Positions 20,605 through 43,816 are shown, counted from the stretch's first letter. The stretch is 52,531 nt of DNA from an uncultured Clostridia bacterium (GCA_947054085.1 CAMRVD010000002.1:1-52531); one strand, 5' to 3'. The notes: generated by a model from the sequence alone, not told the origin. A program made the numbers and translations.

Positions 20605-22128
20605 ATGAAAAAGGTTTTATTATCAATAGTAAGCGTATGTTTGTGCATGGTTTGTGTGTTTTCTTTTGTTGCGTGTAAACCAAAAGACTACGGTACAACT
20701 ACCACAGATACATCTAGGGTAACATCTAATGGGGGCTCGTCTGTTATTTATAATGGCGAATTATACTTTGTAAACGGGTCTGCCACAAACGATGGTAATC
20801 ATAACGGTGGTACAATGGGCAGTATCTATAAAGTAGCAGTAAAAGATAATGGCGAAATTGCTGATAATGCAAGTTACCAAAAAGTTGTAGATTGTTTGGT
20901 TGGCTACAAAAATGGCTCGATAACTATAATCGGTGACTTTTTGTATTATGCAAAACCTAGCACGGCTAAAAATAAAAAGGGCGAAATATTATACAATCGC
21001 ACAGTATTTGAAAGAAAGAATTTAGCTAATGGTTTAACACAAGAGATTTATACAACTGCCGAAAATTCGGAGAGCGAAGAGGTTTCTTACGCCTACTATA
21101 AACATAATGGCAGCGTTAATTTAATAGTATACGAAAAAACAGCTGCGACTTTAAAAAGTTTAAAAATGGGTAACCAAATAACAACCAGTTTTGCTTTAGA
21201 TAAAGTAACATCTGCAGTATTTAGCGACAATATGGGCGAAAGCAAAACCGGAAACATCAGTGCGGATAACTATATATTTTATACTTTAGCAGCGGAAGAA
21301 AATGCTGTGAATACTCAAACAAACAGGGTGTATCGCATTTCTGCAGATGGATCTAACAAGTTGTTATTGCAAGACGATGCACAAGTAAGTTTATTATGTG
21401 TTCGTGCAGGCAAACTGGTATTTAGTGTAAGCTTTGGTAGTGGCTCTAATAAAATAGATTATATTTATGCTTATGATGTTAACCAAAATACAACCGAGCG
21501 AGCTTTATCTGTTGTAGATAGTGTAAATGGAAAAAATCCTAGCGAAAACAGTATTAATAACCTTGTTAGTACTAGCACTTACGAGGATATTATATTTTTA
21601 GAAGAAGGTACAAATTTAAACGAACTTGCGATTTTATTTATAGATGGCAAGGTGCTTAGGTATCTTAAATATAACAAAGGAACAATCGTAAAAGATATAA
21701 AGCTATATACATTTGCTAGTACCCCAACATTGGAGTTTGTAGATACTTATACCGATAATAGCTTAAATAAATCACGTAAATTTGCAATATTTACAAATAA
21801 AGAAAGCAGTAGTTCTAGTTCTTATTTGTATAAAATAGAATTTGGTTTTGATAATCAAGACCAAGTTAACGATGCAAGTCCAGAACCTGTTCAGCTTTCG
21901 TTGTCAAAAATTAATGATGCAATCGGAAATTTAGTTCCAAAAATGATTGGCAATTATATATATGTATTTTCTACCGACGAAGATAAAAATGTCTTGCAAT
22001 ATAGAGTAAATTTTTATACTCCTAAGGATCTGGAAGAACAAAATCCGTCTGGTGGCGATGATAAACCTACCGACGAAGATTTAAAGGTTAAGGAAGGTGT
22101 GCTACTAGGTGGTGCAAACCTATCCTAA
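20605..22128 (+). CDS. lipoprotein, possibly beta-propeller (DUF5050-like)
   Basis: Signal peptide with lipobox FVAC. Recurrent ...LYF/YY... strand motifs. Family assignment is tentative. Confidence 0.6.
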   Translation: MKKVLLSIVSVCLCMVCVFSFVACKPKDYGTTTTDTSRVTSNGGSSVIYNGELYFVNGSATNDGNHNGGTMGSIYKVAVKDNGEIADNASYQKVVDCLVGYKNGSITIIGDFLYYAKPSTAKNKKGEILYNRTVFERKNLANGLTQEIYTTAENSESEEVSYAYYKHNGSVNLIVYEKTAATLKSLKMGNQITTSFALDKVTSAVFSDNMGESKTGNISADNYIFYTLAAEENAVNTQTNRVYRISADGSNKLLLQDDAQVSLLCVRAGKLVFSVSFGSGSNKIDYIYAYDVNQNTTERALSVVDSVNGKNPSENSINNLVSTSTYEDIIFLEEGTNLNELAILFIDGKVLRYLKYNKGTIVKDIKLYTFASTPTLEFVDTYTDNSLNKSRKFAIFTNKESSSSSSYLYKIEFGFDNQDQVNDASPEPVQLSLSKINDAIGNLVPKMIGNYIYVFSTDEDKNVLQYRVNFYTPKDLEEQNPSGGDDKPTDEDLKVKEGVLLGGANLS

Positions 22129-22216
22129 CAGCAGAACTCAGCGAATAACTGCGTTATTAAAAAAATCCCACACGTTGTCTTTACGTTTTAGTAAATACTC
22201 GCGTGGGATTTTTTAT
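22127..22216 (+). repeat. hairpin-repeat family 1, copy at the lipoprotein stop codon (left arm + apical hairpin + T-run)
   Basis: AACAGCAGAACTCAGCGAATAACTGCGTT aligns with the left arms at 25889, 30093 and 36470. CCCACACGTTGTCTTTACGTTTTAGTAAATACTCGCGTGGG aligns with 29175-29217. Confidence 0.65.
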
Positions 22217-22305
22217 GCAATGTGATAATGGTAATTTTGTTGTAAACAGAACATAACTTCTATAAAAATAGTATACAAGATTTGCTATGTGGGCAGTATT
22301 AAATA

Positions 22306-26959: not shown

Positions 26960-29134
26960 ATGAAAATTATAAAAAGAAATGGTCAGGAAGTGATTTTTAA
27001 TAGCGATAAAATATATAATGCTATAGTTAAAGCTAATTTAAAGGTATCAGACAGAGAAAGAATTGCCGATGACCAAATTAAAGAAATTACTGACAAAGTA
27101 AGTTTGGCGTGCAAGAAGAAAAACAGAGCTGTAAGTGTAGAAGAGGTTCAGGATTTAGTAGAAAACGAACTTATGTTGGTTGGAAGTCCTTCCCTTGCTA
27201 GAGAATATATAACTTATAGATATCATAGAGCACTTGCTCGTAAATCTAATACAACAGACGAGCAGATTTTAGGGCTTATAGAGTGTAAAAACGAAGAAGT
27301 TAAGCAAGAAAATTCTAACAAAAACCCAACGGTAAGTAGTGTTCAACGAGACTATATGGCGGGCGAAATTAGCAAGGATTTAACGCGTAGGTTTTTGCTA
27401 CCAGAAGATGTTATAAAGGCTCATGACGAGGGCATTATTCATTTTCATGATACCGACTACTTTGCTCAGCATATGCATAACTGCGATCTTGTAAACCTAG
27501 AGGATATGCTTCAAAATGGCACTGTTATAAGCGGCACTATGATAGAAAAGCCTCATAAATTTTTGACTGCATGCAATATTGCAACGCAAATTATAGCACA
27601 AGTTGCATCAGCTCAGTATGGCGGGCAAAGCATAAGCTTAACTCACCTTGCTCCGTTTGTTAATGATAGTCGTAAAAAAATTCGCGAAGAAGTAGAAGCC
27701 GAATTTAAAGACGCGGGTGTACAAGTAGACGAAAAAGTCCTTACTAATATTGTAGAAAAACGCTTAAGAAAAGAAATTAAAAGTGGCGTGCAGACCATTC
27801 AGTATCAAGTGGTAACTTTAATGACAACTAACGGTCAAGCACCATTTATAACCGTGTTTATGTACCTTGGCGAGGCTAAAAACGAGCAGGAAAAAGCTGA
27901 CCTTGCAATAATTATAGAAGAAACTTTAAAACAACGCTACGAGGGCGTTAAAAACGAAGAGGGCGTATGGATAACTCCGGCCTTCCCTAAGCTTATATAT
28001 GTACTAGAAGAGCAAAACATTCATAAAGATAGCCCTTACTACTACCTTACTAAACTTGCTGCCGAATGCAGTGCAAAACGTATGGTTCCAGACTATATTT
28101 CCGAAAAGAAGATGCTAGAATACAAGGTAGATAAAAACGGCGAAGGTCATTGCTATACTTGCATGGGTTGTCGCAGTTTTTTAACACCTTATGTAGACGA
28201 AAATGGCAAGCCTAAATACTACGGCAGATTTAATCAAGGCGTGGTAACTATTAATCTTCCAGATGTTGCCCTTTCTAGTGGTGGCGACATGGATAAATTC
28301 TGGAAAATCTTTAACGAGAGATTAGATCTTTGCTACCGAGCTTTAATGTGCAGACATAATCGCTTAAAGGGTACGGTTAGTGATGTTGCACCTATCCTTT
28401 GGCAATACGGAGCACTTGCAAGGCTTAAAAAAGGCGAAACCATAGATAAACTGCTATATGGCGGATACTCTACAATATCTCTTGGTTATGCGGGGCTTTA
28501 CGAATGCGTAAAATACATGACTGGCTATTCGCATACCGACGACAAAGCCAAAGACTTTGCACTAAAGGTTATGCAGCACATGAACGACCGTTGCAAAGAG
28601 TGGAAGGAAAAAGAAAATATCGATTTTTCGCTTTATGGAACTCCGCTAGAAAGCACAACATATAAGTTTGCAAAGGCTCTTCAACGCCGCTTTGGAATTA
28701 TAGAGGGCATCAACGATAAAAGCTATATAACTAACAGTTACCATGTTCATGTGTCGGAGCCTATCGACGCCTTTACTAAACTTAAGTTCGAAAGTGAGTT
28801 TCAGCGTTTAAGCCCAGGCGGAGCAATAAGTTATGTAGAAGTACCAGACATGAAGTCTAACATAGACGCAGTTCTTAGTTTACTCAACTATATTTACGAC
28901 AACATTATGTACGCAGAAATCAATACAAAAAGCGACTTCTGCCAAGTTTGCGGCTACGACGGCGAAATCCAGATTGTCGAAGACGACGGCAAACTTGTTT
29001 GGGAATGCCCACATTGTAAAAACCGTGACCAAGCTAAAATGAATGTAGCTAGGCGTACTTGCGGCTATATTGGCACTCAGTTTTGGAATCAGGGGAGGAC
29101 TCAAGAGATACGCGACCGCGTCCTACATTTGTAG
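26960..29134 (+). CDS. nrdD: anaerobic ribonucleoside-triphosphate reductase
   Basis: ATP-cone N-terminus, C-terminal Zn-ribbon cysteines (CQVCG...CPHC) and glycyl-radical motif RRTCGYIG. Confidence 0.97.
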   Translation: MKIIKRNGQEVIFNSDKIYNAIVKANLKVSDRERIADDQIKEITDKVSLACKKKNRAVSVEEVQDLVENELMLVGSPSLAREYITYRYHRALARKSNTTDEQILGLIECKNEEVKQENSNKNPTVSSVQRDYMAGEISKDLTRRFLLPEDVIKAHDEGIIHFHDTDYFAQHMHNCDLVNLEDMLQNGTVISGTMIEKPHKFLTACNIATQIIAQVASAQYGGQSISLTHLAPFVNDSRKKIREEVEAEFKDAGVQVDEKVLTNIVEKRLRKEIKSGVQTIQYQVVTLMTTNGQAPFITVFMYLGEAKNEQEKADLAIIIEETLKQRYEGVKNEEGVWITPAFPKLIYVLEEQNIHKDSPYYYLTKLAAECSAKRMVPDYISEKKMLEYKVDKNGEGHCYTCMGCRSFLTPYVDENGKPKYYGRFNQGVVTINLPDVALSSGGDMDKFWKIFNERLDLCYRALMCRHNRLKGTVSDVAPILWQYGALARLKKGETIDKLLYGGYSTISLGYAGLYECVKYMTGYSHTDDKAKDFALKVMQHMNDRCKEWKEKENIDFSLYGTPLESTTYKFAKALQRRFGIIEGINDKSYITNSYHVHVSEPIDAFTKLKFESEFQRLSPGGAISYVEVPDMKSNIDAVLSLLNYIYDNIMYAEINTKSDFCQVCGYDGEIQIVEDDGKLVWECPHCKNRDQAKMNVARRTCGYIGTQFWNQGRTQEIRDRVLHL

Positions 29135-29256
29135 ACGGCAACACTTAACGCAACTTTTCGCTTACTAATGCTTTGCCCACACTTGTCATTTACGCATAAG
29201 TAAACTCCGCGCGTGGGCAAACATAGAGCACTTAATTTGCATCAATTCTTGCCGCC
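29135..29256 (+). repeat. hairpin-repeat family 1, full unit a (122 nt)
   Basis: Starts right after the nrdD TAG. The ends ACGGCAA.../...TTGCCGC pair, as does the inner stem TTTGCCCAC/GTGGGCAAA. The apex is GTCATTTACGCATAAGTAAACTCC (29185-29208). Confidence 0.7.
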
Positions 29257-29259
29257 TAC

Positions 29260-29380
29260 GGGCAAGCGACATTTGGCTTTATGTAGCAGATTTTGCTTTT
29301 GCCAACTAGTCACTTACGCAATTGTCAAGCTCCTAGCTGGTAAAAACATCGCAACTTTGTCTAGCATCTAAATTCTGCCT
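29260..29380 (+). repeat. hairpin-repeat family 1, full unit b (121 nt)
   Basis: The inner stem is TTTTGCCAACTAG/CTAGCTGGTAAAA and the apex is GTCACTTACGCAATTGTCAAGCTCC (29309-29333). The right end reverse-complements to GGCAGAATTTAG, the same as the left end at 30097. Confidence 0.7.
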
Positions 29381-29423
29381 TTTATGGTAAGTTAATAGAT
29401 AAAATATAAAAGAGATAAATATT

Positions 29424-29544
29424 AAACGGAAAAAATTAGATGCTCCGTAAGGCTCGGCGATGCTTGAATAAAGATTTTACTAATTGTAAATGAGTTTATT
29501 AAAGCGTTGACAGAAACATAACGGGGCGCTAATTTTTTCCGTTT
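29424..29544 (+). repeat. hairpin-repeat family 1, full unit c (121 nt) with perfect 16-nt terminal inverted repeats
   Basis: AAACGGAAAAAATTAG (29424-29439) pairs with CTAATTTTTTCCGTTT (29529-29544). The apex is degenerate: TTTTACTAATTGTAAATGAG. Confidence 0.75.
29507..29535 (+). promoter_or_regulatory. candidate nrdG promoter lying inside repeat unit c
   Basis: TTGACA (29507-29512), 17-nt spacer, TAATTT (29530-29535), followed by the AAAGGAG RBS and the ATG at 29558. Confidence 0.45.
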
Positions 29545-29557
29545 AAAAGGAGATAAT

Positions 29558-30094
29558 ATGAACTACGCAACCATCAAACCCGTAGATATTGCCAATGGCG
29601 AAGGCGTTAGAGTTTCGCTTTTTGTTAGCGGTTGCAGGCATAAATGCAAAAACTGCTTTAACAGCGAAGCTTGGAGCTTTAGTTACGGCAGACCTTTTAC
29701 AACAGAAACTATAGAGCAGTTATTGGGGTTTCTTGCACCCGATTATATTACGGGGGTTACTCTTCTTGGTGGCGAGCCATTTGAGCCCGAAAATCAGCCA
29801 GAACTTGCTAAGTTTTTAGAAGAATTTAAGGCTAAGTTTCCTACAAAAGATGTTTGGTGCTACACGGGTTTTGTTTACGACAAAGAACTTTTAGGTAAAA
29901 GCCGTGCAAAAACCCCCTATACTTTAAAAATGCTTAAAAACATAGATGTGCTTGTAGACGGCAGGTTTGTAGAAAATCTAAAGGACATATCTCTTAAATT
30001 TCGTGGCAGCAGCAATCAGCGAATTATAGATGTTAAGCAAAGCTTAGATGCTGGCGAAGTGGTAGAGTATCAACTTAAAAAGAGCAGTATGTAA
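29558..30094 (+). CDS. nrdG: anaerobic ribonucleotide reductase activating protein (radical SAM)
   Basis: CRHKCKNC (CxxxCxxC) cluster motif, 178 aa, position next to nrdD. Confidence 0.95.
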   Translation: MNYATIKPVDIANGEGVRVSLFVSGCRHKCKNCFNSEAWSFSYGRPFTTETIEQLLGFLAPDYITGVTLLGGEPFEPENQPELAKFLEEFKAKFPTKDVWCYTGFVYDKELLGKSRAKTPYTLKMLKNIDVLVDGRFVENLKDISLKFRGSSNQRIIDVKQSLDAGEVVEYQLKKSSM

Positions 30095-30125
30095 ACGGCA
30101 GAATTTAAGTTATACTTCGCTTTCT
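30093..30125 (+). repeat. hairpin-repeat family 1, left terminus only, overlapping the nrdG stop
   Basis: AAACGGCAGAATTTAAGTTATACTTCGCTTTC aligns with the other left arms. The rest of the spacer is a different sequence. Confidence 0.55.
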
Positions 30126-30144
30126 TAAACGCGTTCGTCCGGTC

Positions 30145-30201
30145 GTCCTCGTGCGGTATATTACATGTGCTTGTAGCACATTAATATGTAGTCGAAGGAT
30201 C
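30145..30201 (+). repeat. short repeat family 2, copy b (interrupted by a 33-nt hairpin)
   Basis: GTCCTCGTGCGG ... AGTCGAAGGATC, split by the hairpin TATATTACATGTGCTTGTAGCACATTAATATGT. Confidence 0.45.
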
Positions 30202-30309
30202 TTTGATTTGCAAGTGATAGATTATTAGTATATAGGTTTAGATCTACGAAAAACTTGGTGTAAATTTCCTTTGTTACATTTGGTAGCGTCAAACAGAAAT
30301 ATCAATTTT

Positions 30310-30342
30310 AGCCACTTTAAAATTTTTAAAGTGGCTTTTTGC
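30310..30342 (+). terminator. intrinsic terminator of the nrdG transcript
   Basis: AGCCACTTTAAAA/TTTTAAAGTGGCT stem followed by a T-run. Confidence 0.8.
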
Positions 30343-33465: not shown

Positions 33466-34736
33466 TGAACTATTTTGGAACAGACGGAATTAGGGGCGAG
33501 GTTTTTAAAGATTTAGACTATAATTTGGCTCTTATTTGTGGTAATGCCATAGGACGGCGTGCAAATAAAATAATAATTGGTAGAGATACTCGGCTTAGCG
33601 GTAAAATTTTATCGGAAGCTTTTTGCTTAGGAGCAAATCTAGCAGGGGCTAGCGTTGTTGACATTGGTGTTGCAACTACTCCCTGTGTAAGTTATCTTAC
33701 AAAATTACATAATTTTAGCTATGGTATAGTAATTAGTGCTAGTCATAACCCACCAAAGTATAACGGAATAAAAGTATTTAATAACCTTGGTAAAAAGTTG
33801 ACGCAATCGGACGAAGAAGCCATAGAACAAGATTTTAATAACATGATAACAAACTATGCATCGTCTGCAAAAACTACAAAATCACCAAGGCTTATTAACG
33901 ATTATATAAAATTTTTATTAAATAGCAGCACAAATTTAGCGGGCATAAATGTTTGTGTGGATTGTGCAAACGGTGCAAGCAAAAATATTGCAAAAAAAGT
34001 TTTTAAAACTCTTAATGCTAATGTTTTGTACACGGGCATTGGAAGCGGTAAAAATATTAATAAAGAATGCGGTGCAACGTTTCAAGATAACATTATAAAC
34101 TTTACAAAAAAGCATAATGCAGACATAGGCTTTGCGTTTGATGGCGATGCCGACAGAATTATAATGGTTGATAGTCTTGGAAAATTGTATTCGGGGGACA
34201 ATATACTTCTTGGTTTAAGCGAACAATTTAATGCAAAAAAAGTTGTAGGAACAACTTTTTCTAACTTAGGACTTCAAAAAACATTGGAGCAAAAAAACAT
34301 AGAGTTTATTCGTGCAGATGTTGGTGACAAATGGGTGGCTTTAAAAATGGAAGAATCTAAAGCTATAATCGGTGGCGAACAATCGGGTCATATTATATTG
34401 CCCGGCTTACCAACTGGTGACGGACTATATGTTGCATTGCAAATGTGTAATTTTTATAAAAAAAATAAAAGCTTAAAAAGCTTAGAATTTAAAGAATATC
34501 CACAAGTTATAAAAAATGTAAGCGTAAAAAATAAGCAAATAATTAACAGCAAAAACTTTACAAATGCCTTAAACAAGATAACGCTTAATTTTAACGGCAG
34601 AATAATTGTTCGCCCAAGTGGTACAGAAAATAAAATACGTGTTATGGTAGAATATCTCGACAAAGTCACCTCCGAAAATACTGCGAATAAAATAGTAGAA
34701 TTAATAAAACAGGAACAATCTTTATGTGCGGAATAG
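33465..34736 (+). CDS. glmM: phosphoglucosamine mutase
   Basis: MNYFGTDGIRG N-terminus, active-site ISASHNP and Mg motif FDGDADR. The start overlaps the upstream stop (TAATG). Confidence 0.93.
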   Translation: MNYFGTDGIRGEVFKDLDYNLALICGNAIGRRANKIIIGRDTRLSGKILSEAFCLGANLAGASVVDIGVATTPCVSYLTKLHNFSYGIVISASHNPPKYNGIKVFNNLGKKLTQSDEEAIEQDFNNMITNYASSAKTTKSPRLINDYIKFLLNSSTNLAGINVCVDCANGASKNIAKKVFKTLNANVLYTGIGSGKNINKECGATFQDNIINFTKKHNADIGFAFDGDADRIIMVDSLGKLYSGDNILLGLSEQFNAKKVVGTTFSNLGLQKTLEQKNIEFIRADVGDKWVALKMEESKAIIGGEQSGHIILPGLPTGDGLYVALQMCNFYKKNKSLKSLEFKEYPQVIKNVSVKNKQIINSKNFTNALNKITLNFNGRIIVRPSGTENKIRVMVEYLDKVTSENTANKIVELIKQEQSLCAE

Positions 34737-36454
34737 TTGGGTACATCGGTTCTAAAACCGATATAAAAAATGCTTTGGAAACTTTAAAAAAATTAGAATA
34801 TCGCGGGTACGATAGTGCAGGTGTTGCTTTTGTTAAGCGTGGCAAAATACAATGCTTTAAACGTGTTGGACAAATTAATAATTTAATAGAAACCATTGGT
34901 AAAAAAAGTGCAAAAATATGTATTTGCCATACTCGGTGGGCAACTCACGGCAAAGCAACCGAAGAAAATGCACATCCAATAATGTCATACAATAATAATT
35001 TTTCAGTTGTTCATAATGGTATTATCGAAAATTATAAATATTTAAAAGCGAAAATAGGTGCAGAAAAATTTTCGACTAGTACCGACACCGAAGTAATTTG
35101 CAACCTACTGGAGTATCTAAAAGGCGATACAATCAGCCGAGTTATCGAGTGTGAAAGTTTGTTAGAAGGCAGCTATGCTTCGCTTATTATAGATAAATGC
35201 AATAAATACATTTACGCAATAAAAAATAAAAGCCCTATGTATATAGCATGCGGAAAAAAAGGTACAACTATAGCCAGCGATATCAGCTGTTTAAATGCTG
35301 AGTATTTTTATAATTTGCCCGACCATACAGTTGCAAAGATAAATAAAAAAGAAATAACATTTTATAGTAACGGAAATATTATAGATTTGCCGCTTTGTAA
35401 AAATATTCATAATTTTGAAAGCAACGACTTAGGGCAATACAAAACATATATGCAAAAAGAAATAGCCGAAACAAATAAGACAATATCTAACATTGTAGAG
35501 TTATATTCTTCGAGTAATAATTATATTAACGAAAACATTTTTAAAGGTATAAAAAATGTTATTTTGACTGGTTGTGGAACTGCTTATCATGCATGCTGCT
35601 TAGGTGCAAATTGGATACAAAAAAACTTAAAAATCCCAGCTAGTGCATATATTGCAAGCGAACTACGTTATAGCGAACCAATACTAGATGATAGTTCGCT
35701 TATGGTGTTAGTTAGTCAAAGCGGCGAAACTGCAGATACACTAGCAGCAGGCGAACTTGCTAAAGACAAGGGCTGCAGAATAATAACTATAACAAATGTT
35801 GGGTATAGTACACTTGCTAACCTTGCAGATGTATGTTTGCCTTTGTGTGCGGGGGCAGAAATTGCGGTAGCAAGCACCAAAGCATATGCTGCCATGCTGG
35901 CGGTTTTATATTTGTTATCTCATGCCACAAGCGGCTTTATAAAATCGCTACAAAATTTAAAGGAAATTTGTCAAAAGTTTAATTCAGATAATATATCTAA
36001 AGATATTGTTAAAAAAGTAATTAATAGTAAGCGTGTGTTTTTTATTGGTAGGCTAGACGACGGGGTAACTGCTAGCGAAGGTGCACTTAAACTTAAAGAA
36101 ATAGCTTACATAGATGCTTGCGGCTATTTTGCAGGCGAGTTAAAGCACGGAACAATTGCACTTATCGAAAACGATGTTGTAGTTATTGCAATAATTACTA
36201 ACCCTAACCTAAAACAAAAGACACTTAATGCAGTAGAAGAAGTAGTAAGTCGTGGTGCAGAGGTAATAATTATAACAAACGATAAAAGCATTACTGGTTA
36301 CACAACTATTTTTATAGATACCGCAATAGACGAAGAGCTTAATAGTTTACTAAGTGTTTATCCTCTACAAAAATTAGCTTGCGAGGTATCTTTAAGTTTG
36401 GGATTTAATCCAGACAAGCCGAGGAATTTGGCTAAAAGTGTTACTGTCGAATAA
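34724..36454 (+). CDS. glmS: glutamine--fructose-6-phosphate aminotransferase
   Basis: MCGIVGY N-terminal nucleophile, two SIS domains and C-terminal ...KSVTVE. Overlaps glmM by 13 nt. Confidence 0.97.
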   Translation: MCGIVGYIGSKTDIKNALETLKKLEYRGYDSAGVAFVKRGKIQCFKRVGQINNLIETIGKKSAKICICHTRWATHGKATEENAHPIMSYNNNFSVVHNGIIENYKYLKAKIGAEKFSTSTDTEVICNLLEYLKGDTISRVIECESLLEGSYASLIIDKCNKYIYAIKNKSPMYIACGKKGTTIASDISCLNAEYFYNLPDHTVAKINKKEITFYSNGNIIDLPLCKNIHNFESNDLGQYKTYMQKEIAETNKTISNIVELYSSSNNYINENIFKGIKNVILTGCGTAYHACCLGANWIQKNLKIPASAYIASELRYSEPILDDSSLMVLVSQSGETADTLAAGELAKDKGCRIITITNVGYSTLANLADVCLPLCAGAEIAVASTKAYAAMLAVLYLLSHATSGFIKSLQNLKEICQKFNSDNISKDIVKKVINSKRVFFIGRLDDGVTASEGALKLKEIAYIDACGYFAGELKHGTIALIENDVVVIAIITNPNLKQKTLNAVEEVVSRGAEVIIITNDKSITGYTTIFIDTAIDEELNSLLSVYPLQKLACEVSLSLGFNPDKPRNLAKSVTVE

Positions 36455-36469
36455 CCCCACGGCGAAGCT

Positions 36470-36593
36470 AAACGGCAATAATTAGCGAATTACTACATAA
36501 ACTTAAAAAAGGCAGACTGGTCATTTACGCTTAAGTAAAATCCTAGCCTGCTTTTTTTAGTTTACTTTGTACTTCATCTAATTATTGCCGTTT
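36470..36593 (+). repeat. hairpin-repeat family 1, full unit (124 nt) with perfect 16-nt terminal inverted repeats
   Basis: AAACGGCAATAATTAG (36470-36485) pairs with CTAATTATTGCCGTTT (36578-36593). The inner stem is flanked by A6 and T7 runs. The apex is GTCATTTACGCTTAAGTAAAATCC (36520-36543). Confidence 0.8.
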
Positions 36594-36783
36594 CTTTAAG
36601 TGTAATACTAAAAATTCCCTCTAAAAAAATCTTATAGTCAATTTATGTAATTTACTAATAAAATTATTTACAATAAAAACCATTATAAAATAAGAGCTTT
36701 TTTATTTATTATTATAAATAAATTTTTTGGGGGCTTGCAAAATATACAAAATAGTGTATACTTATATATAATACATTAGCGAG

Positions 36784-38136
36784 ATGAAAATGGAAAATTT
36801 AACCGATACAATTGTTGCAATTTCTACTGGCTCTACAAGTGGGGCTATTTCTATTGTGCGAATGAGCGGCAAAGATGCAATTAATATTGCAAATAAAATG
36901 TTTAGATCTTTAAAAAACAAAATACCTAAAGAATTTAACGCTAGGTATCTGGAACTAGGCAATCTAAAAACAAGCGGCTTTACCGAGCAAGCGTTATGCG
37001 TGGTTTTTAAAGCACCTTATAGCTATACGGGCGAAGATATTGTAGAGTTTCAGTGTCATGGTGGGCTAAAGATAGCCGAAGGCGTGGTAACCGAGTGCAT
37101 AAAAAATGGTGCAAGGCTTGCAACCAATGGCGAATTTACAAAAAGGGCATTTATTAACGGCAAACTAAGTTTGTCTAGTGCCGAAGGCGTTATGGATATG
37201 ATAAACGCCGAAACCGATGCCGAAGTGCGTGCAGGGTACGAACTATTAAATGGCGGGCTTTCTAAAATTGCAACGGACTCGCAAAACGAACTGACCGATA
37301 TTTTAAGCGAAATAGAAGTATCTTTTGATTACCCCGAAGAACAAATAGAATATATAACCAAAGCCAAAGTAAAACAAAGGCTAAACAGCATAGCAGGTTT
37401 GCTTGATGACGTGCTAGAAAGCAGTAAAACCGGTAACCTAATAAAAAATGGTATAAGCATTTTAATTGTAGGTAAACCTAATGTAGGTAAAAGCAGTTTA
37501 TTAAACAGGCTAATTAACCGAGATAGGGCAATAGTAACAGACATACCGGGTACAACCCGAGATAGCATAGAGGACAGCTTTACAATTGGCGGAATTAAGG
37601 CTAAAATAATAGATACGGCGGGTATTCATGATACCGACGATCTGGTAGAAAAATTAGGCGTAGATAAAGCCAAACAGCTTATAGATTTTGCAGACATTAT
37701 TATTTATGTTACAGACAGTTCTAATCCTTTAGTCAAAGAAGATAATGATATTTTTGAACTTGTAAAAAATAAGCAGCACATAAAGGTGGCAAACAAGTGC
37801 GATATAGCAAAAACGCGTCAAGATAAAACATCAATATATATAAGCTCTGCAACAGGTGAGGGCATCGAAAATCTAAAACAAGAAATCTATAATCGATTTA
37901 AAAGTCCAAAACTTGTAGAGGGCGGTGTAATTATTACAAACGCACGCCACAAACAAGCACTAGCTGTTGCACTAGAACATGTTAATATGGCACTAGACGA
38001 CATAGACAACCAAACCCTCGATTTAATTTCTATAGACTTAAAGCTTGCTTATTCTGCACTGGGTGAAATTACAGGTAACACCACAGGCGAAGATATAATA
38101 GATAGTATTTTTAGTAAATTTTGTTTAGGAAAATAA
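36784..38136 (+). CDS. mnmE: tRNA modification GTPase MnmE
   Basis: DTIVAISTG N-terminus, G1 GKPNVGKSSLLN, DTAG, NKCD and the C-terminal FCLGK motif. Confidence 0.95.
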   Translation: MKMENLTDTIVAISTGSTSGAISIVRMSGKDAINIANKMFRSLKNKIPKEFNARYLELGNLKTSGFTEQALCVVFKAPYSYTGEDIVEFQCHGGLKIAEGVVTECIKNGARLATNGEFTKRAFINGKLSLSSAEGVMDMINAETDAEVRAGYELLNGGLSKIATDSQNELTDILSEIEVSFDYPEEQIEYITKAKVKQRLNSIAGLLDDVLESSKTGNLIKNGISILIVGKPNVGKSSLLNRLINRDRAIVTDIPGTTRDSIEDSFTIGGIKAKIIDTAGIHDTDDLVEKLGVDKAKQLIDFADIIIYVTDSSNPLVKEDNDIFELVKNKQHIKVANKCDIAKTRQDKTSIYISSATGEGIENLKQEIYNRFKSPKLVEGGVIITNARHKQALAVALEHVNMALDDIDNQTLDLISIDLKLAYSALGEITGNTTGEDIIDSIFSKFCLGK

Positions 38137-38138
38137 TC

Positions 38139-39194
38139 ATGAGAATAATTCAGTTATACAGTTACGATAAATATATAAAGCAAATAGAAAATTGGACAAA
38201 AGACAATACCGATCCAAACGCTAATAATATTCAAAAGTTTGTGCTTGGGAGTGGAACAATGACAGAGTTTTTAAATGACGTCATAAAAAAATCAGCAACA
38301 GAAAAACCTATTTTTAAAAAGCGAAAATTTTATGTTGCAATAGAAAACGACGAAGTTCTAGCTTTTGCAGATATACAAATTGAACCAGATATGGAGCTTT
38401 TAGGTGAATATCACGAAATTAATATTTTGTCTGTTGCCGTAAATCCAAAATATCAATCAAAAGGAATAGGCACAACTTTTATTCAAAATGTAATTGATTG
38501 CAATATTAATAACACTACTAGTAATATTAATGTTTTTGTAGAAAATACAAACCAAAAAAGCTTAAATATGTTTAAAAACGTTACATTTAAAAATAATAAA
38601 AAGTTTAATTCTACAAAAAAAGAATGGGATGGCAATTATTTGTTAAATTGCTCTATGATAGATTACAACTATTTTAATGGATATGAATTAAAACAAATAA
38701 CAGAAAAATCTGTCGAGGTTGATCAGCTTAACGAATGGGCAAACTTAAAAAATAATTCTGCTTTAAAAAAATATACGTTTAAAGACCAAGAAATAGATTT
38801 TACAGAACTATTAAAAGATAATTTGGTCAAAACTTTAACTAATGTAAAACCAAAAAGTTATGTTCTTTTGCACAATAACGAAGTGGTTGGACTAGTTATT
38901 TTTAGTCTGTTTAAAAATCATCATAACAGCGATAAGGTTTGTTTTATCAGACACATATGCACACATCCCGAATGTCAAAATTTAGGAGTTGGTGCTAAAC
39001 TTCTAGATTCTGTTATATATAACAGACAAAACATGCTTGGCAAAGATTACGATATTATATTAGCCGATATTGTGGATGATAATAAACCGTCACTTAGACT
39101 GTTTAAAAAAATGGGATTTAATATTGTAAAAGAAAAAAATAATTATACCGCTAGTTTAATAAATCCAAAAAAAACAAATACAAGAAGAATATGA
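38139..39194 (+). CDS. tandem-GNAT (two acetyltransferase-like halves) protein
   Basis: The ATG lies 2 nt after the mnmE stop, and its TGA overlaps the mnmG ATG (ATGA). The first half has LSVAVNPKYQSKGIGTTFIQNVI. The second has ICTHPECQNLGVGAKLLDSVI...LFKKMGFNIV. Confidence 0.7.
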   Translation: MRIIQLYSYDKYIKQIENWTKDNTDPNANNIQKFVLGSGTMTEFLNDVIKKSATEKPIFKKRKFYVAIENDEVLAFADIQIEPDMELLGEYHEINILSVAVNPKYQSKGIGTTFIQNVIDCNINNTTSNINVFVENTNQKSLNMFKNVTFKNNKKFNSTKKEWDGNYLLNCSMIDYNYFNGYELKQITEKSVEVDQLNEWANLKNNSALKKYTFKDQEIDFTELLKDNLVKTLTNVKPKSYVLLHNNEVVGLVIFSLFKNHHNSDKVCFIRHICTHPECQNLGVGAKLLDSVIYNRQNMLGKDYDIILADIVDDNKPSLRLFKKMGFNIVKEKNNYTASLINPKKTNTRRI

Positions 39195-41041
39195 ATAACA
39201 AAATTAATTATGATTGTATAGTAGTAGGTGCAGGGCACGCAGGAGTGGAAGCCGCCCTTGCAACTGCCAGAACTAATAATAAGACACTGTTAGTTACTTT
39301 AACAAAAGAAGCTATCAGTTTTTTAGCATGCAATCCTTCTATTGGAGGCACGGCCAAAGGTCATTTGGTGTGCGAAATAGACGCCCTTGGCGGCGAAATG
39401 GGCAGAACTGCCGATCGAACAACATTGCAGCTAAGAATGCTTAATATGGGCAAAGGTCCAGCAGTGCATAGTCTAAGAGCTCAAGTAGATAAAAATAGCT
39501 ATCATCGTACTATGCAGCAAGTTTTAGAAGAACAGCCAAACTTAGATATTTTAGAGGACGAAGGTGCAGAAATTTTAACCCAAGAGGGCAAAGTTGCAGG
39601 GATTGTTACAGTAAGCGGAAAAACTTTTAATTGTAGAGCGATAGTACTTGCATGCGGAGTGTATTTAAACAGCCGAACAATAACGGGCGAGATTATCAAA
39701 GACAGTGGCCCTGCTGGGTTTGGCAATAGCAAAAACTTAACTAAAAGCCTAATAGACTTAGGTTTTCAAATACGTAGGTTTAAAACGGGAACACCGCCAA
39801 GACTGGACGGTGACAGTATAGATTATTCCCAGTTTGAAGAGCAAAAGGGTGATAAGAATATTCAGACTTTTAGCTTTTTAACAAAAAAGGCAAACCCAAA
39901 TACTAGGGTGTGCTATCTTGGTTATACTACCGAGCTTACCAAAAAAATAATTTTAGATAATCTAGACAAAGCACCTATGTATAGTGGAGTTATTACCGGG
40001 CTAGGGCCTAGGTATTGCCCAAGTATAGAAACCAAAATTGTCCGCTTTAGCGATAAGGATCGTCATCAAGTATTTTTAGAACCAGAAACCAACGATAATA
40101 ATCAAATATATATTCAGGGTATGTCTACAAGCATGCCAAAGGATATTCAGCACAAGATGATAGAGTCTATCGCGGGGCTAGAAAAAACTAAGTTTGTAAA
40201 ATACGGTTACGCCATAGAATACGATTGCATTAATCCGCTTAACTTGTACCCAACGCTAGAATGTAAGTTTGTAAAAGGCTTGTTTTGTGCAGGTCAGATT
40301 AATGGCACTAGCGGCTACGAGGAAGCTGGGGCACAAGGCATAGTTGCTGGTATAAACGCCAACTTGTACATAAAAGGTAAAGAGCAACTAATATTAAAAC
40401 GAGATAATAGTTATATTGGAGTTCTTATAGACGACCTTACAACCAAAGGCACAAACGAGCCTTACCGTATGATGACTAGCCGTGCAGAATATAGGTTATT
40501 ACTGCGTCAAGATAACGCAGACCAAAGGCTTACCGAAATTGGGTATAGTGTAGGGCTTGTAACACCCGAACGCTACAAAAAGTTTAAGCACAAAATGAGG
40601 CAGATAGAAAAACTTAAAACTTATTTAAACAATGTAATAGCACCTAGCGAGCAGCTAGACGAGTATCTTGTAAGCATTGGCGAAAACCCCGCTCCAAGAG
40701 GAATAACTATAGATAATCTATGTAAGCGTGCAAATAGCGATTTATACTTAGCCAACAAAAAGCTTAAACTTTTCAAAGGCTTTAGTAAGGCTGAGATTAC
40801 CGAAGTTAATATAGACGCTAAGTACGAGGGCTATTTAAAACGTCAGAACCAACTTATTGAGCGTAGCCGAAAGCTAGAGGAAAAGCGAATACCTGCTGGC
40901 TTTAACTTTAAAGCGGTAAAGGGGTTACGAACCGAAGCTGCCGAAAAACTCGACAACATTAAGCCGCTAACCTTGGGTGCTGCTAGCAGAATAAGCGGCG
41001 TAAACCCAGCAGATATAACAGTGTTACTTATGCACTTGTAA
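39191..41041 (+). CDS. mnmG: tRNA uridine 5-carboxymethylaminomethyl modification enzyme MnmG
   Basis: FAD motif VVGAGHAGVEAA. Full-length GidA-like sequence of 616 aa. Confidence 0.97.
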   Translation: MNNKINYDCIVVGAGHAGVEAALATARTNNKTLLVTLTKEAISFLACNPSIGGTAKGHLVCEIDALGGEMGRTADRTTLQLRMLNMGKGPAVHSLRAQVDKNSYHRTMQQVLEEQPNLDILEDEGAEILTQEGKVAGIVTVSGKTFNCRAIVLACGVYLNSRTITGEIIKDSGPAGFGNSKNLTKSLIDLGFQIRRFKTGTPPRLDGDSIDYSQFEEQKGDKNIQTFSFLTKKANPNTRVCYLGYTTELTKKIILDNLDKAPMYSGVITGLGPRYCPSIETKIVRFSDKDRHQVFLEPETNDNNQIYIQGMSTSMPKDIQHKMIESIAGLEKTKFVKYGYAIEYDCINPLNLYPTLECKFVKGLFCAGQINGTSGYEEAGAQGIVAGINANLYIKGKEQLILKRDNSYIGVLIDDLTTKGTNEPYRMMTSRAEYRLLLRQDNADQRLTEIGYSVGLVTPERYKKFKHKMRQIEKLKTYLNNVIAPSEQLDEYLVSIGENPAPRGITIDNLCKRANSDLYLANKKLKLFKGFSKAEITEVNIDAKYEGYLKRQNQLIERSRKLEEKRIPAGFNFKAVKGLRTEAAEKLDNIKPLTLGAASRISGVNPADITVLLMHL

Positions 41042-41076
41042 TTGTAATAGATATAAAATTGCAACTTTAGCATATT

Positions 41077-41105
41077 GTCATTCTGGGTCTACGAGCGAAG
41101 AATAC
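41077..41105 (+). repeat. short repeat family 2-related arm (GTCATTCTGGGTCTACGAGCGAAGAATAC)
   Basis: Imperfect inverted partner of 41124-41158. Confidence 0.45.
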
Positions 41106-41123
41106 AAAACCAAATAAATAAAA

Positions 41124-41158
41124 GATCCTTCAACTCACTGTCGTCCGCTCAGGAAGAC
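41124..41158 (-). repeat. short repeat family 2, copy c (reverse orientation)
   Basis: The reverse complement GTCTTCCTGAGCGGACGACAGTGAGTTGAAGGATC aligns with 18536-18568. Confidence 0.55.
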
Positions 41159-41181
41159 GGATTGGAAAAGTGTACTAATCG

Positions 41182-41212
41182 AAAAAAACCACGGAATTTC
41201 CGTGGTTTTTAT
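41182..41212. terminator. bidirectional intrinsic terminator (mnmG / jag convergent)
   Basis: CCACGGA/TCCGTGG stem flanked by A7 and T5 runs. Confidence 0.85.
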
Positions 41213-41310
41213 TTGTTATTTGTCATTGTATTAATTTTTGTCTAGTCATAATAATTTAGCCATAACAATTTAATTTTAATTGCTTAGTGGTAATTATTAA
41301 TCTTAATTGC

Positions 41311-42024
41311 CTAGTCGTTATTGTCGCGTAGGTCGCTAACTTCTATGTTAGTAAATTCGGGTTTTGCTTGTTTTTGCTTGCGGTCTTCGCTTTTTTGCTT
41401 GCGTTTGTCCGCTGCGTCTTTAAGCATAATTGTAACATATCTGTATGGGTCCTTGCCGTTACTAACAGTAGTTACTTTTGCATGGTCGGCAAGGGCGGTA
41501 TGAATAAATCGTCTGTCGCTAGCATTCATAGGCTCTAGTTTTACACTTCTGCCCGAACGCATTACTTTACCGGCTTCACGCATAGCAAGAAGTTTAAGCG
41601 TATCGCCTCGCTTTGTGCGGTAACCATTGCTATCTACCATTAGGCGTTTATACTCGGCAGATACTTTGCCTTTGTTAAATATACTATTTATAATAAACTG
41701 AAAACTATCTAAATTTTCGCCGTGCTTACCAATAAAGTACGACGCATCGTCACCGGTAATGTCTATGTAAAAGTGATCTTCCTTTTCTTCTACATAAACA
41801 TCTACAGACAAATTCATAAGTTTTGTAAGCTTTTCTGCAAGGTCTTTTACAGCAGTTTCAGCTTCGCTGGATTGTTCTAAAGTAAGTCTTACTTTAGCTT
41901 TATTAAATAATCCTGCTTGCTCTAAAATATTAATTTTAACTTGGTCGCGGGTTACTCCTAGCTTGTATAAACCAATTTCTATAGCTTGGTCTACAGTTTT
42001 TCCTTCGGTTTCTAAACTTTTCAT
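41311..42024 (-). CDS. jag: RNA-binding protein Jag/KhpB (Jag_N, KH, R3H)
   Basis: MKSLETEGKTVDQAIEIGL N-terminus and an R3H-like SDRRFIHTAL motif. Immediately downstream of yidC. Confidence 0.9.
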   Translation of the reverse strand: MKSLETEGKTVDQAIEIGLYKLGVTRDQVKINILEQAGLFNKAKVRLTLEQSSEAETAVKDLAEKLTKLMNLSVDVYVEEKEDHFYIDITGDDASYFIGKHGENLDSFQFIINSIFNKGKVSAEYKRLMVDSNGYRTKRGDTLKLLAMREAGKVMRSGRSVKLEPMNASDRRFIHTALADHAKVTTVSNGKDPYRYVTIMLKDAADKRKQKSEDRKQKQAKPEFTNIEVSDLRDNND

Positions 42025-42025
42025 A

Positions 42026-43189
42026 TTATCTTACTCTCCCATTACGTTTTTCTAATTTTAAAGCTTCTTTTGCAAGTTCTTCTTCCACTTCGGCTTCTTT
42101 CTTTCTAAATACTTTAGATACTATTAGGTTTGTGATAAGCCCTATAATTGTACTCATAAGTGAGTTGGTAATAACATATATACCAAATGCAGAGTTAGTG
42201 GTAAATACAAATATAGCCATCATAACAGGAACAAGAAGCTTCATAAACCACATAGATTTGGCTTGTGGATTTGCTGCATCTACAACTTGCTGTGATTTTT
42301 TGTTTTTACTTTTTGTAGATAAATCGCTAATCATCATAGTTGCAACCGATAATACTACCGAAATAACAGCAAGTAGATAATAACCGTTCCAGTCGCCGGT
42401 GTCTGCAACTATCATGCCCGAAATTTGAGTGTAGTTAAAGTTGAGAACTGGATTATTAATTATTTCGTTGACATCTGCTTTGTAATCGGCCTTTTTACTG
42501 TTATTTGCCATTTTTTGAAGCTCGGCTAGACTAGGGAATGGGCTAGCGTGACCATCGGTCACCCAAATGTTTTTAATCCATAGCCAGCTTTGTTTTTCTT
42601 CGTGCCATTTTGCTTGAACAACTTCGGTTGCTTCTTTTACTGCGGCTTCTACCTTGGCTTTTTCGTCCTCGCTTACTTCCTCGTTTTTAGAAAGTTTTTC
42701 TAATACAATCTTATACTCTTCGTAGTTGCCATCGTAGCTTTGGGTAACGCTTGCTACGTATGCATCGTGAATATTATGATACTGCGATATTGCTTGATAA
42801 CTAGATAAATCCCTTAGTCCTGCAAATAGGGTAAAGAAAATCACCGAGGTTAATACAAGGTTAAGTAGCATAACTATACACGAGCCAAAAACATTGTAGC
42901 CCTCGCGTTTGTACAAAGCTTGGGTTTGAGTTTGGATCATCTGCGAGTTATTGCCATACTTAATTTTTAGTCTTGTCATTTGTGGTGCAAGCTTTTTTTG
43001 CATAAGCGAAGTTTTTTTGCTGCTGTGTTTAATAAGATAGTCAAAAGGGCTTAAAACAAGTTTTACAAATATAATAAGCACAAGTATTGTCCAGCCGTAG
43101 CCACCAACAAAACTATGCACCCAATTTATTAAGCTTGCCCACATACCCGTTGGTGCTTGTACTGCAGCAATTATAGGTTCAAGGTTCAT
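42026..43189 (-). CDS. yidC: membrane protein insertase YidC/SpoIIIJ family
   Basis: Polytopic 387-aa protein in the rnpA-yidD-yidC-jag context with a conserved 60-kDa-IMP-like core. An extra charged insertion lies between helices. Confidence 0.88.
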   Translation of the reverse strand: MNLEPIIAAVQAPTGMWASLINWVHSFVGGYGWTILVLIIFVKLVLSPFDYLIKHSSKKTSLMQKKLAPQMTRLKIKYGNNSQMIQTQTQALYKREGYNVFGSCIVMLLNLVLTSVIFFTLFAGLRDLSSYQAISQYHNIHDAYVASVTQSYDGNYEEYKIVLEKLSKNEEVSEDEKAKVEAAVKEATEVVQAKWHEEKQSWLWIKNIWVTDGHASPFPSLAELQKMANNSKKADYKADVNEIINNPVLNFNYTQISGMIVADTGDWNGYYLLAVISVVLSVATMMISDLSTKSKNKKSQQVVDAANPQAKSMWFMKLLVPVMMAIFVFTTNSAFGIYVITNSLMSTIIGLITNLIVSKVFRKKEAEVEEELAKEALKLEKRNGRVR

Positions 43190-43199
43190 AAAATTCTCC

Positions 43200-43475
43200 T
43201 TACATTAAATTTTTATAGTAGCCTTTTATATTATAAGGCACGGGGTCTAATCCGCCTTTAGTAAATGGATTGCACTTTAGTAATCTTTTAGCAGTTAAAA
43301 AAATACCTACAAAAAAACCCCACTCTTTAGTACTTTCACTTGCGTAAACCGAGCAAGTTGGAGTAAATTTGCATGTGTGGGGGATAAAAGGTGATATGCA
43401 AAATCTAAATATATAAAATACCCCTAAAAGCAGGTATTTAGGAATATTAATAACTACTTTAAAAAAATTCTTCAT
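43200..43475 (-). CDS. yidD: membrane protein insertion efficiency factor YidD
   Basis: CKFTPTCSVYASES...RLLKCNPFTKGGLDPVP signature. Confidence 0.9.
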   Translation of the reverse strand: MKNFFKVVINIPKYLLLGVFYIFRFCISPFIPHTCKFTPTCSVYASESTKEWGFFVGIFLTAKRLLKCNPFTKGGLDPVPYNIKGYYKNLM

Positions 43476-43816
43476 TCATCCATGTAAAGTTTGGCTTTTT
43501 TTAAAAGATAATCTGTTTCTCCGCTAAGCGTTTTAAATGTCGCATCAGCCGAGGCTGGTTTTGCTACAATTATAATATTGTAGTTATTTTTAAGTTTACT
43601 AAGTAGTGGGCTAATGCTCTCGCGAATGCGACGTTTAGTGCGGTTTCTTACAACTGCACCACCCACTTTTTTACTAACCGATATACCAACTTTAATATTC
43701 TTGTTTTTGCTAGGGCAGTAGTAGAGTACTAAATTTTTGCCGCCTACCGTTTTGCCAACTTTATAAACATAATTAAATTGATATTTCTTTTTTAGTCTGT
43801 AAACCTTTTTAATCAT
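43472..43816 (-). CDS. rnpA: ribonuclease P protein component
   Basis: 114 aa, basic, with RNR-type motif AVVRNRTKRRIRE. Overlaps the yidD start. Confidence 0.9.
   Translation of the reverse strand: MIKKVYRLKKKYQFNYVYKVGKTVGGKNLVLYYCPSKNKNIKVGISVSKKVGGAVVRNRTKRRIRESISPLLSKLKNNYNIIIVAKPASADATFKTLSGETDYLLKKAKLYMDE

Follow-up and report, generated by a model that had tools for sequence, protein, structure and literature searches.

An apparently undescribed family of long hairpin repeats anchored at stop codons in gut Clostridia, with three copies between nrdD and nrdG

ERIC (IRU) sequences, which are 127-bp imperfect palindromes of enterobacteria, and the Correia (NEMIS) elements of Neisseria are intergenic, non-coding repeats that are co-transcribed with their neighbours and have been reported to affect mRNA stability or processing. 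Both occur in either orientation, and Correia elements additionally have conserved terminal repeats and a TA duplication. Integron attC sites are imperfect hairpins of about 60-140 nt (123-126 nt for the Vibrio VCRs) that directly follow an ORF in a fixed orientation; their sequence varies and their structure is conserved, of the two strands it is the antisense one that folds better, or in a special way, with unpaired bases, and the apex is variable. REPs are situated mostly between unidirectional or convergent ORFs, with less than 20 bp separating them from the ORF upstream, whose TAG stop they can supply; they are probably transcribed, form mosaic arrays with other small repeats and include a CGTC-type superfamily without a known transposase (PMC3733652). 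Stem-loops mark transcript 3′ ends whether termination is Rho-independent or Rho-dependent, in the latter case without U-tracts (PMC13613805).

Within the window, the 52,531-nt stretch of uncultured Clostridia DNA analysed here, the spacer between nrdD and nrdG holds three units of a hairpin repeat that resembles each of these systems in part. Like REPs and BIMEs, the family is multicopy, extragenic and situated between co-directional and convergent genes near the end of the upstream ORF, and one of its members, unit a, pairs the GTAG of nrdD with CTAC and thereby contains the stop codon. REPs are palindromes of 20-40 bp with a GTAG/CGTC foot tag, whereas the units of the family are single hairpins of about 120-135 nt that conserve an apex and two internal loops, have a variable foot (GTAG occurs only at unit a) and carry near-identical apices in Clostridia and in a diderm MAG. 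With ERIC and Correia the family shares its size, a single long imperfect hairpin and the lack of coding capacity; it differs from them in host range, in having no sequence similarity to them and in keeping one orientation to the upstream gene in about 94% of cases, and from Correia also in its varying termini and the absence of a visible duplication. The position behind an ORF, the fixed orientation and the better folding of the antisense strand recall attC sites, but most copies lack the AAC/GTT core boxes, the genes upstream are housekeeping genes in synteny, not cassettes, and the apex is conserved. An identity as integron attC was rejected: the R''/R' core (RYYYAAC ... GTTRRRY) is not conserved at the foot, the neighbours are housekeeping genes and there is no integrase. 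Like the stem-loops of 3′ ends, the units come soon after a stop, often without a U-tract, and have a C-rich, G-poor sense strand (PMC13613805); ordinary 3′-end stem-loops are short and gene-specific, whereas this family has an invariant apex and multiplies within genomes.

The family is not categorically new: it is an apparently undescribed, unusually well-defined kind of extragenic palindromic repeat. A preliminary description of the window, which knew of no described element with this architecture, went too far in this respect, since ERIC, Correia and REP dimers are known long imperfect-palindrome repeats, and stop-codon anchoring within 20 bp has already been published for REPs (PMC3733652). 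If our description is right, it adds a large unannotated repeat family to gut Clostridia (the Christensenellales/Coproplasma group) and other taxa. MAG assemblies break at copies of the family, which also fill spacers between genes, so knowing it would aid annotation and assembly, and its strain-level variation would give markers. Strict one-orientation stop-codon anchoring, an apex conserved across very different genomes and strand-asymmetric mismatches are rarely combined, and the family offers a clean test of whether REP-like repeats act as sense RNA, antisense RNA or folded DNA, a strand question that is open for REPs in general.

Hairpin units in the window

Pfam agreed with the identities of nrdD and nrdG, and the 423-nt spacer between them held no ORF beyond one mechanical ORF of 52 amino acids. 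The three units that had been placed in this spacer, and a fourth copy behind glmS, were found where the preliminary description put them (Table 1); the termini quoted for them were correct, including the perfect inverted repeat of unit c (16-18 nt), and the apex was indeed the best-conserved part of the units. The spacer is not, however, the simple tandem direct array that had been proposed. Units a and b, about 60-70% alike, lie head-to-tail, followed by an AT-rich spacer and by unit c, which is inverted relative to a, b and d and aligns only as the reverse complement; the termini of b and c face each other as an 82% inverted repeat. Tandem Repeats Finder called no tandem repeat at the spacer because pairwise identity between the window units is only 58-69%. 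The spacer is made up of two direct copies, one of them decayed, and one inverted copy, more than expected by chance. The inversion of c had been missed, as had the fixed orientation of the units relative to the upstream gene.

Table 1. Coordinates of hairpin units and associated features in the window
Feature	Position	Strand	Description
nrdD	26960-29134	+	Anaerobic ribonucleotide reductase; Pfam NRDD, ATP-cone, Gly_radical
nrdD stop TAG	29132-29134		Within the foot of hairpin a, GTAG...CTAC; paired in the fold of 29131-29260
Unit a	29131-29260	+	Full-length copy, usual orientation; apex 29185-29208
Unit a, covariance model match	29126-29264		59.1 bits, E 5e-14
Unit b	29260-29384	+	Degenerate copy, oriented as a; apex 29309-29333 (GTCACTTACGCAATTGTCAAGCTCC)
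Unit b, covariance model match	29269-29371		20.8 bits, E 0.003
AT-rich spacer	29385-29421		Between tail of b and tail of inverted c
Unit c	29422-29546	-	Full-length copy, opposite orientation; apex 29472-29494
Unit c, covariance model match	29419-29551	+	44.4 bits
nrdG with ribosome-binding site	29546-30094	+	AAAGGAG 29546-29552, ATG 29558; Pfam Fer4_12, Radical_SAM
nrdG coding sequence	29558-30094	+	423 nt after nrdD
Unit d	36470-36593	+	Best-preserved copy in the window; apex 36520-36543
Unit d, covariance model match	36463-36600		74.8 bits, E 1.8e-18
Probable decayed fifth copy	22126-22251	+	Starts at stop of ORF 20605-22128, usual orientation
Fifth copy, covariance model match	22120-22251		13.9 bits, E 0.3 (weak); fold z about -4.1 on both strands

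The earlier view that every unit forms a long imperfect hairpin held for a, c and d, which fold far better than shuffled sequences, and failed for b. Unit a, whose GTCATTTACGC... strand is the same strand as that of nrdD, folds at -34 kcal/mol (z -4.6) on the + strand and at -60.4 kcal/mol (z -7.9) on the - strand; the corresponding values for unit c are -49 kcal/mol (z -7.9) and -37.5 kcal/mol (z -6.5), and unit d reaches z -9.3 on + and -10.8 on -. Unit b pairs well in its inner stem only (z -0.65 on +, -1.9 on -). The foot of unit c touches the nrdG Shine-Dalgarno sequence, and as the nrdD-nrdG spacer contains no promoter-like site on the + strand, nrdG is probably read through the units. 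Unit d lies 15 nt past the glmS stop (glmS, 34724-36454) and upstream of mnmE (36784), both identified by Pfam, and the window as a whole consists of housekeeping genes. The probable fifth copy has an apex-like TTTACGTTTTAGTAAA on a stem of 12 continuous pairs (AAAAAAUCCCAC with GUGGGAUUUUUU), beyond which a few more pairs, with interruptions, lead up to the loop. An imperfect direct repeat, TAACAGCAGAAC ... TAAACAGAAC, brackets this copy; it takes in the stop codon and is the only candidate target duplication we saw.

In strains with 99%-identical NrdG the nrdD-nrdG spacer is 334 nt long, as against 423 nt in the window; it matches the window exactly over unit a and on through the 5′ half of b up to and including the apex, then diverges and lacks unit c. 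Where NrdG identity drops to 72%, the spacers of the relatives measure 83 and 49 nt and contain a single small ordinary hairpin apiece, with no element. Given that the spacers of these relatives span only 49-83 nt, the units are lineage-specific insertions, and the NrdD C-terminus ...VLHL*, which the window has in common with relatives that lack the element, indicates that the NrdD coding sequence was left unaltered. From the sequence we infer that the break at the apex of b probably reflects recombination between diverged copies; a break at this point is expected, because the apex is the longest identity that diverged copies have in common. When loci L065-L072 are set against window positions 29335-29530, a c-like arm, with about 75% similarity, occupies the position of the 3′ arm of b, and where unit c would lie there is a short palindrome, CTTTAGCTTTACTGTAAAGCGAAAG.

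Several smaller features were noted elsewhere in the window. Directly past the nrdG stop (30095-30310), ACGGCAGAATTTAAG resembles the 5′ terminus of the family; the roughly 215 nt that follow it are absent from an 85%-identical relative (L073), in which a plain terminator follows the stop, and the window's own nrdG terminator comes only at about 30312-30338. This 215-nt stretch has no apex and no similarity elsewhere in the window. Farther along, mnmE and mnmG on the + strand converge on jag, yidC and an rnpA-sized ORF on the - strand (36784-43816), the GC skew falls to about zero past 40 kb, and the mnmG-jag spacer (41270-41322) contains a 27-nt unit, TTAATCTTAATTGCCTAGTCGTAATTA, twice.

Extent, structure and placement of the family

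An apex pattern, GTCATTTACGCNTAAGTAAA, scanned against one genome per species, matched 64 loci, mostly in Candidatus Coproplasma and in other uncultured Clostridia or Christensenellaceae MAGs. Two of these matches, in Acinetobacter and Nomurabacteria, were due to chance, and six lay in a single MAG labelled Campylobacterota, which is a diderm, as its contig carries RND-efflux, TolC-like and LolA-like genes. A covariance model (R1) built from 47 copies, mostly from other genomes and with the four window units included, gave 92 matches in the 64 genome loci, in tandem arrays of up to four units. Many R1 matches were cut by contig ends, as is expected when contigs end inside a multicopy repeat. 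Leaving the 6-nt loop free (GTCATTTAC-N6-GTAAACTCC) yielded at least 120 metagenome loci on contigs of 28-65% GC, the first 100 of which contained 121 R1 matches; arms were highly diverse among the metagenome copies and the loop sequence was not conserved. Genomes hold many copies each, with subfamilies and tandem arrays, and tandem arrays of near-identical units were found at L014 (four units), L019, L046, L055 and L042. A triple array inside an operon had been called unusual; arrays of 2-4 units, and positions between co-directional genes, are in fact normal for the family.

The suggestion that the spacer contains a repeated hairpin element was thus borne out by hundreds of further copies from the model-based search, and no Rfam family matched. 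Rfam 15 gave no match at gathering thresholds for the window and 12 related loci; in the window spacer, rliE and precursors of plant miRNAs were the only weak matches and scored no more than 28 bits where the cut-offs stand at 90-211, and the L014 array had none up to E = 10. No family match was present among PLSDB plasmids or viral contigs. An origin from phages or plasmids was discarded, the only trace of it being a 42-nt, chance-level match (E 7e-4) to two Acinetobacter phages in INPHARED. A search of the literature on EFAR, Christensenellales repeats and MITEs or terminators returned nothing specific to the family, which is apparently undescribed and widespread in gut Clostridia.

RNAalifold modelled the aligned copies as one long hairpin with 32 consensus pairs, 25 of which show compensatory changes. 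In the MAFFT alignment, 89.6% of cells were paired, compared with 33-40% when partners were slid, and the covariation score was 0.608, compared with at most 0.144 for slid partners. The long hairpin is therefore strongly supported by covariation, and its arms vary. The apex is almost invariant, and two internal loops are conserved as well. Conservation outside the apex, as seen in metagenome copies on the modelled strand, comprises a CrAGG / rACrmaG internal loop, a few single positions and, adjoining the apex, a second GA/GA mismatch pair. The termini are not the same from one genome to another, or even among the subfamilies of a single genome, yet stay complementary, and foot positions showed no conservation across 121 aligned copies.

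Placement relative to genes was equally regular. With the GTCATTTACGC... strand taken as forward, the 3′ end of a same-strand gene lay on a fixed side of the element, mostly within 15 nt, in 66 of the 70 genome matches that had genes on both sides. Arrays almost always open with a unit 0-15 nt past the stop, and larger distances mostly equal one or two unit lengths, corresponding to second or third units. The stop codon, typically 51-60 nt ahead of the apex, is found at the hairpin's 5′ foot and in some copies within it; the metagenome set agrees, with the stop 45-62 nt ahead of the apex in 49 matches and two matches in the opposite orientation. Gene pairs around the genome matches were co-directional in 53 cases, convergent in 16 and divergent in 1. 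Among the upstream genes, which are housekeeping genes or highly expressed ones, are tuf, rplA, rplL, rpmG, nusG, ffh, mnmE, glmS and nrdD, and the same orthologous sites, such as those after ffh, mnmE and rplA, are filled across genera. Within the window, units a, b and d and the decayed copy obey the orientation rule, and unit c is among the few exceptions.

Candidate functions and origin

We tentatively favour, with slightly less than even confidence, the reading that the units form a new REP/ERIC-like family of dispersed non-coding hairpins that serve as co-transcribed 3′-end or intercistronic stem-loops. Copies, which carry no gene of their own, would have entered the nrdD-nrdG spacer in the lineage of the window and would be transcribed within the upstream mRNA, here as nrdD-a-b-c-nrdG. 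As 3′-end or intercistronic stem-loops they may stop 3′-to-5′ exonucleases and so define or protect the end of the upstream message, which would uncouple nrdD from nrdG mRNA levels; by analogy with REPs, the nrdD part of the message would likely be stabilised relative to nrdG. If so, a 423-nt structured spacer between the reductase and its activase should affect their relative expression. The C-rich, G-poor and YC-rich sense strand would suit Rho loading, and in some lineages the units may double as a terminator hairpin. Multiplication could proceed through a putative trans-acting factor that reads the apex, together with unequal recombination between copies. Some observations sit poorly with this reading: a plain exonuclease barrier needs neither an invariant apex nor conserved internal loops, and unit c breaks the orientation rule.

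The search for mobility functions bears both on the stem-loop reading and on a purely selfish one, in which the family is a MITE or REP without host function, mobilised by a RAYT or IS200/IS605-type transposase encoded elsewhere, and its position behind stops reflects only tolerated or targeted insertion sites. We regard this as unlikely, though a serious contender. Near-identical copies at unrelated loci of one genome, genome-specific subfamilies, presence or absence that differs between relatives, assemblies that break inside the element and occurrence in both Clostridia and the diderm Campylobacterota-labelled MAG are all what a selfish element would produce. The window subfamily also has 16-nt terminal inverted repeats: units c and d have AAACGG.AA.AATTAG in common, although termini differ between genomes and even among subfamilies of one. 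Varying termini around a conserved apex are, however, the reverse of a classical MITE, and no parent IS with matching terminal repeats was found. Clustering of ORFs across first 64 and then 184 loci (windows of about 1-15 kb) revealed no transposase or mobility gene that recurs near the elements, only housekeeping families, and no RAYT gene was seen at any of these loci, which counts against the selfish reading and against the stem-loop reading; CGTC-type REPs likewise lack a known transposase (PMC3733652). No direct repeats flank units a, c or d or the Coproplasma copies, and the lack of a consistent target-site duplication, the sole candidate being that at 22126-22251, also counts against both readings. 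Filled orthologous sites across genera, together with compensatory changes, point to constraint.

The two strands of the hairpin are markedly asymmetric. In 66 of 69 units the antisense (reverse) strand is the better folder (mean -45.6 kcal/mol, vs -37.4 kcal/mol for the sense strand); purines make up 86% of the unpaired bases in its internal loops, among which GA/GA, counted 138 times in 68 units, is the most frequent. A strand-neutral, arm-against-arm comparison of 182 units counted 1650 pyrimidine-pyrimidine vs 119 purine-purine mismatches on the sense (mRNA) strand. About 14 in 15 non-wobble arm mismatches are thus pyrimidine-pyrimidine on the mRNA strand, and the same mismatches are purine-purine on the other strand, often as tandem G·A. 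Wobbles on the sense strand were about equal in the same strand-neutral count (319 G·U vs 253 A·C); wobble asymmetry was rejected as a strand test, because the 129 G·U vs 54 A·C obtained on the antisense strand from a CM-fitted alignment disagrees with that count. The sense strand is C-rich and G-poor, with a C/G ratio of 1.39 (C exceeds G in 162 of 166 units) compared with 0.93 in the upstream coding sequence, and YC dimers are three times as frequent on it as on the complement. On the antisense strand, a conserved G·U closes the apex helix in 42 of 47 sequences, and GGA-containing modules are conserved. These asymmetries do not amount to many independent observations, since they lie mostly at a few conserved, inherited positions. 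They could reflect selection for sheared G·A on the antisense strand or for pyrimidine loops and a rut-like composition on the sense strand.

The purine loops, the mismatch bias and the better antisense folding fit selection on the other strand at least as well as they fit the stem-loop reading, and a second rival, to which we give a somewhat lower probability than to the selfish one, holds that the selected structure is a bottom-strand hairpin with purine mismatches, antisense to the upstream gene. It might function as antisense RNA, for instance by forming a polar insulator or a processing site at which transcripts that enter the gene from behind are halted or destroyed. Or, by analogy with the bottom strand of integron attC, it might be single-stranded DNA that folds and is recognised by a recombinase or nuclease. 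The difference between the strands of unit a (-60.4 vs -34 kcal/mol), the 66 of 69 units that behave alike, the purine loops with GA/GA as their commonest form, the apex-closing G·U and the GGA-containing modules all argue for such a structure, and a fixed orientation flush with the end of the ORF would suit an insulator. The lack of wobble asymmetry in the strand-neutral count argues against it, as does the concentration of most of the asymmetry at a few inherited positions. Nor does the antisense strand have a U-tract; visual inspection of the sequence downstream of the element revealed no conserved promoter, no recombinase recurs nearby and attC base motifs are not conserved. A mini-ORF at the apex of the antisense strand (GGAG-N7-AUG CGU AAA UGA) was set aside, the position of its AUG being variable.

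A bolder proposal, which we consider improbable, is that the apex, GG·GA·GUUUAC-N6-GUAAAU·GA·CC on one strand, forms with the CrAGG / rACrmaG loop and the purine-purine ladder a recognition module for a putative conserved factor, so that the family would represent a new class of gene-end signal across phyla and not one more selfish palindrome. Such a signal might, for example, be a factor-dependent terminator, a polar insulator that blocks antisense transcription or a site for recombination of single strands.

No general U-tract follows the hairpin on either strand: the 8 nt after it contain a mean of 1.9 T, and T-runs of at least 5 occur in 20% of copies, similar to control regions. A canonical intrinsic terminator was rejected as the identity of the family on this ground, and the missing U-tract is also a difficulty for the stem-loop reading. 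Copies in a low-GC Firmicute lineage (L083, L112, L124, L163, L166), located after tuf, rplA and other genes, have feet with an A-run and U6-8 and look like true bidirectional intrinsic terminators, judging from their sequence. A canonical terminator was present within 190 nt downstream in only 10 of 87 elements, against a background of 7.9%, so the units are not generally inserts ahead of a terminator; this scarcity, too, tells against the stem-loop reading. That the units are simply the intrinsic (Rho-independent) terminators of nrdD and glmS, or a local tandem duplication of such, is very improbable: they do directly follow stops where relatives have small terminator-like hairpins, unit d is followed by UUUCUUU and some lineages have U6-8 tails, but U-runs are no commoner than in controls, the units lie inside an operon whose second gene the first needs, hundreds of unrelated loci carry members of this sequence family, so that no local duplication is involved, and the L042 array precedes a separate canonical terminator. 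At L042 (1360-1790), a stop is followed by two full units and one cut just after the apex, then by a tandem 25-nt motif (TTAATAATAGTGCCATTGCC...) and then by that terminator, a layout indicating that arrays can sit upstream of a normal terminator. The idea that the outer stem is a pre-existing, gene-specific terminator stem was likewise rejected, as otherwise unrelated loci of a single genome share these outer stems.

Repeats adjoining the hairpins

Just 3′ of the hairpin in Coproplasma (L017, L021, L033, L035, L053, L057 and others) we observed a 22-nt module, (A/G)NACATACCCRAATAAGGTGA, which is sometimes duplicated and carries AAGGTGA, a Shine-Dalgarno-like sequence left unused by the following gene. 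Other short hairpin repeats adjoin the units in Clostridia, namely GTCATTGCG...GCAATCCC, GTCATTCTGAGCG...GAAGAATCTC and GCTTTCCCTGAAGAACAGGGAAAGTGG (loci L013, L018, L039, L051, L053 and L056-L058; L025, L028, L037, L044, L054 and L064). They share with the family the frame GTCATT...CC of its apex, a sequence resemblance that hints at a wider superfamily. The GTCATTGCG...GCAATCCC and GTCATTCTGAGCG...GAAGAATCTC repeats also occur in the Campylobacterota-labelled MAG.
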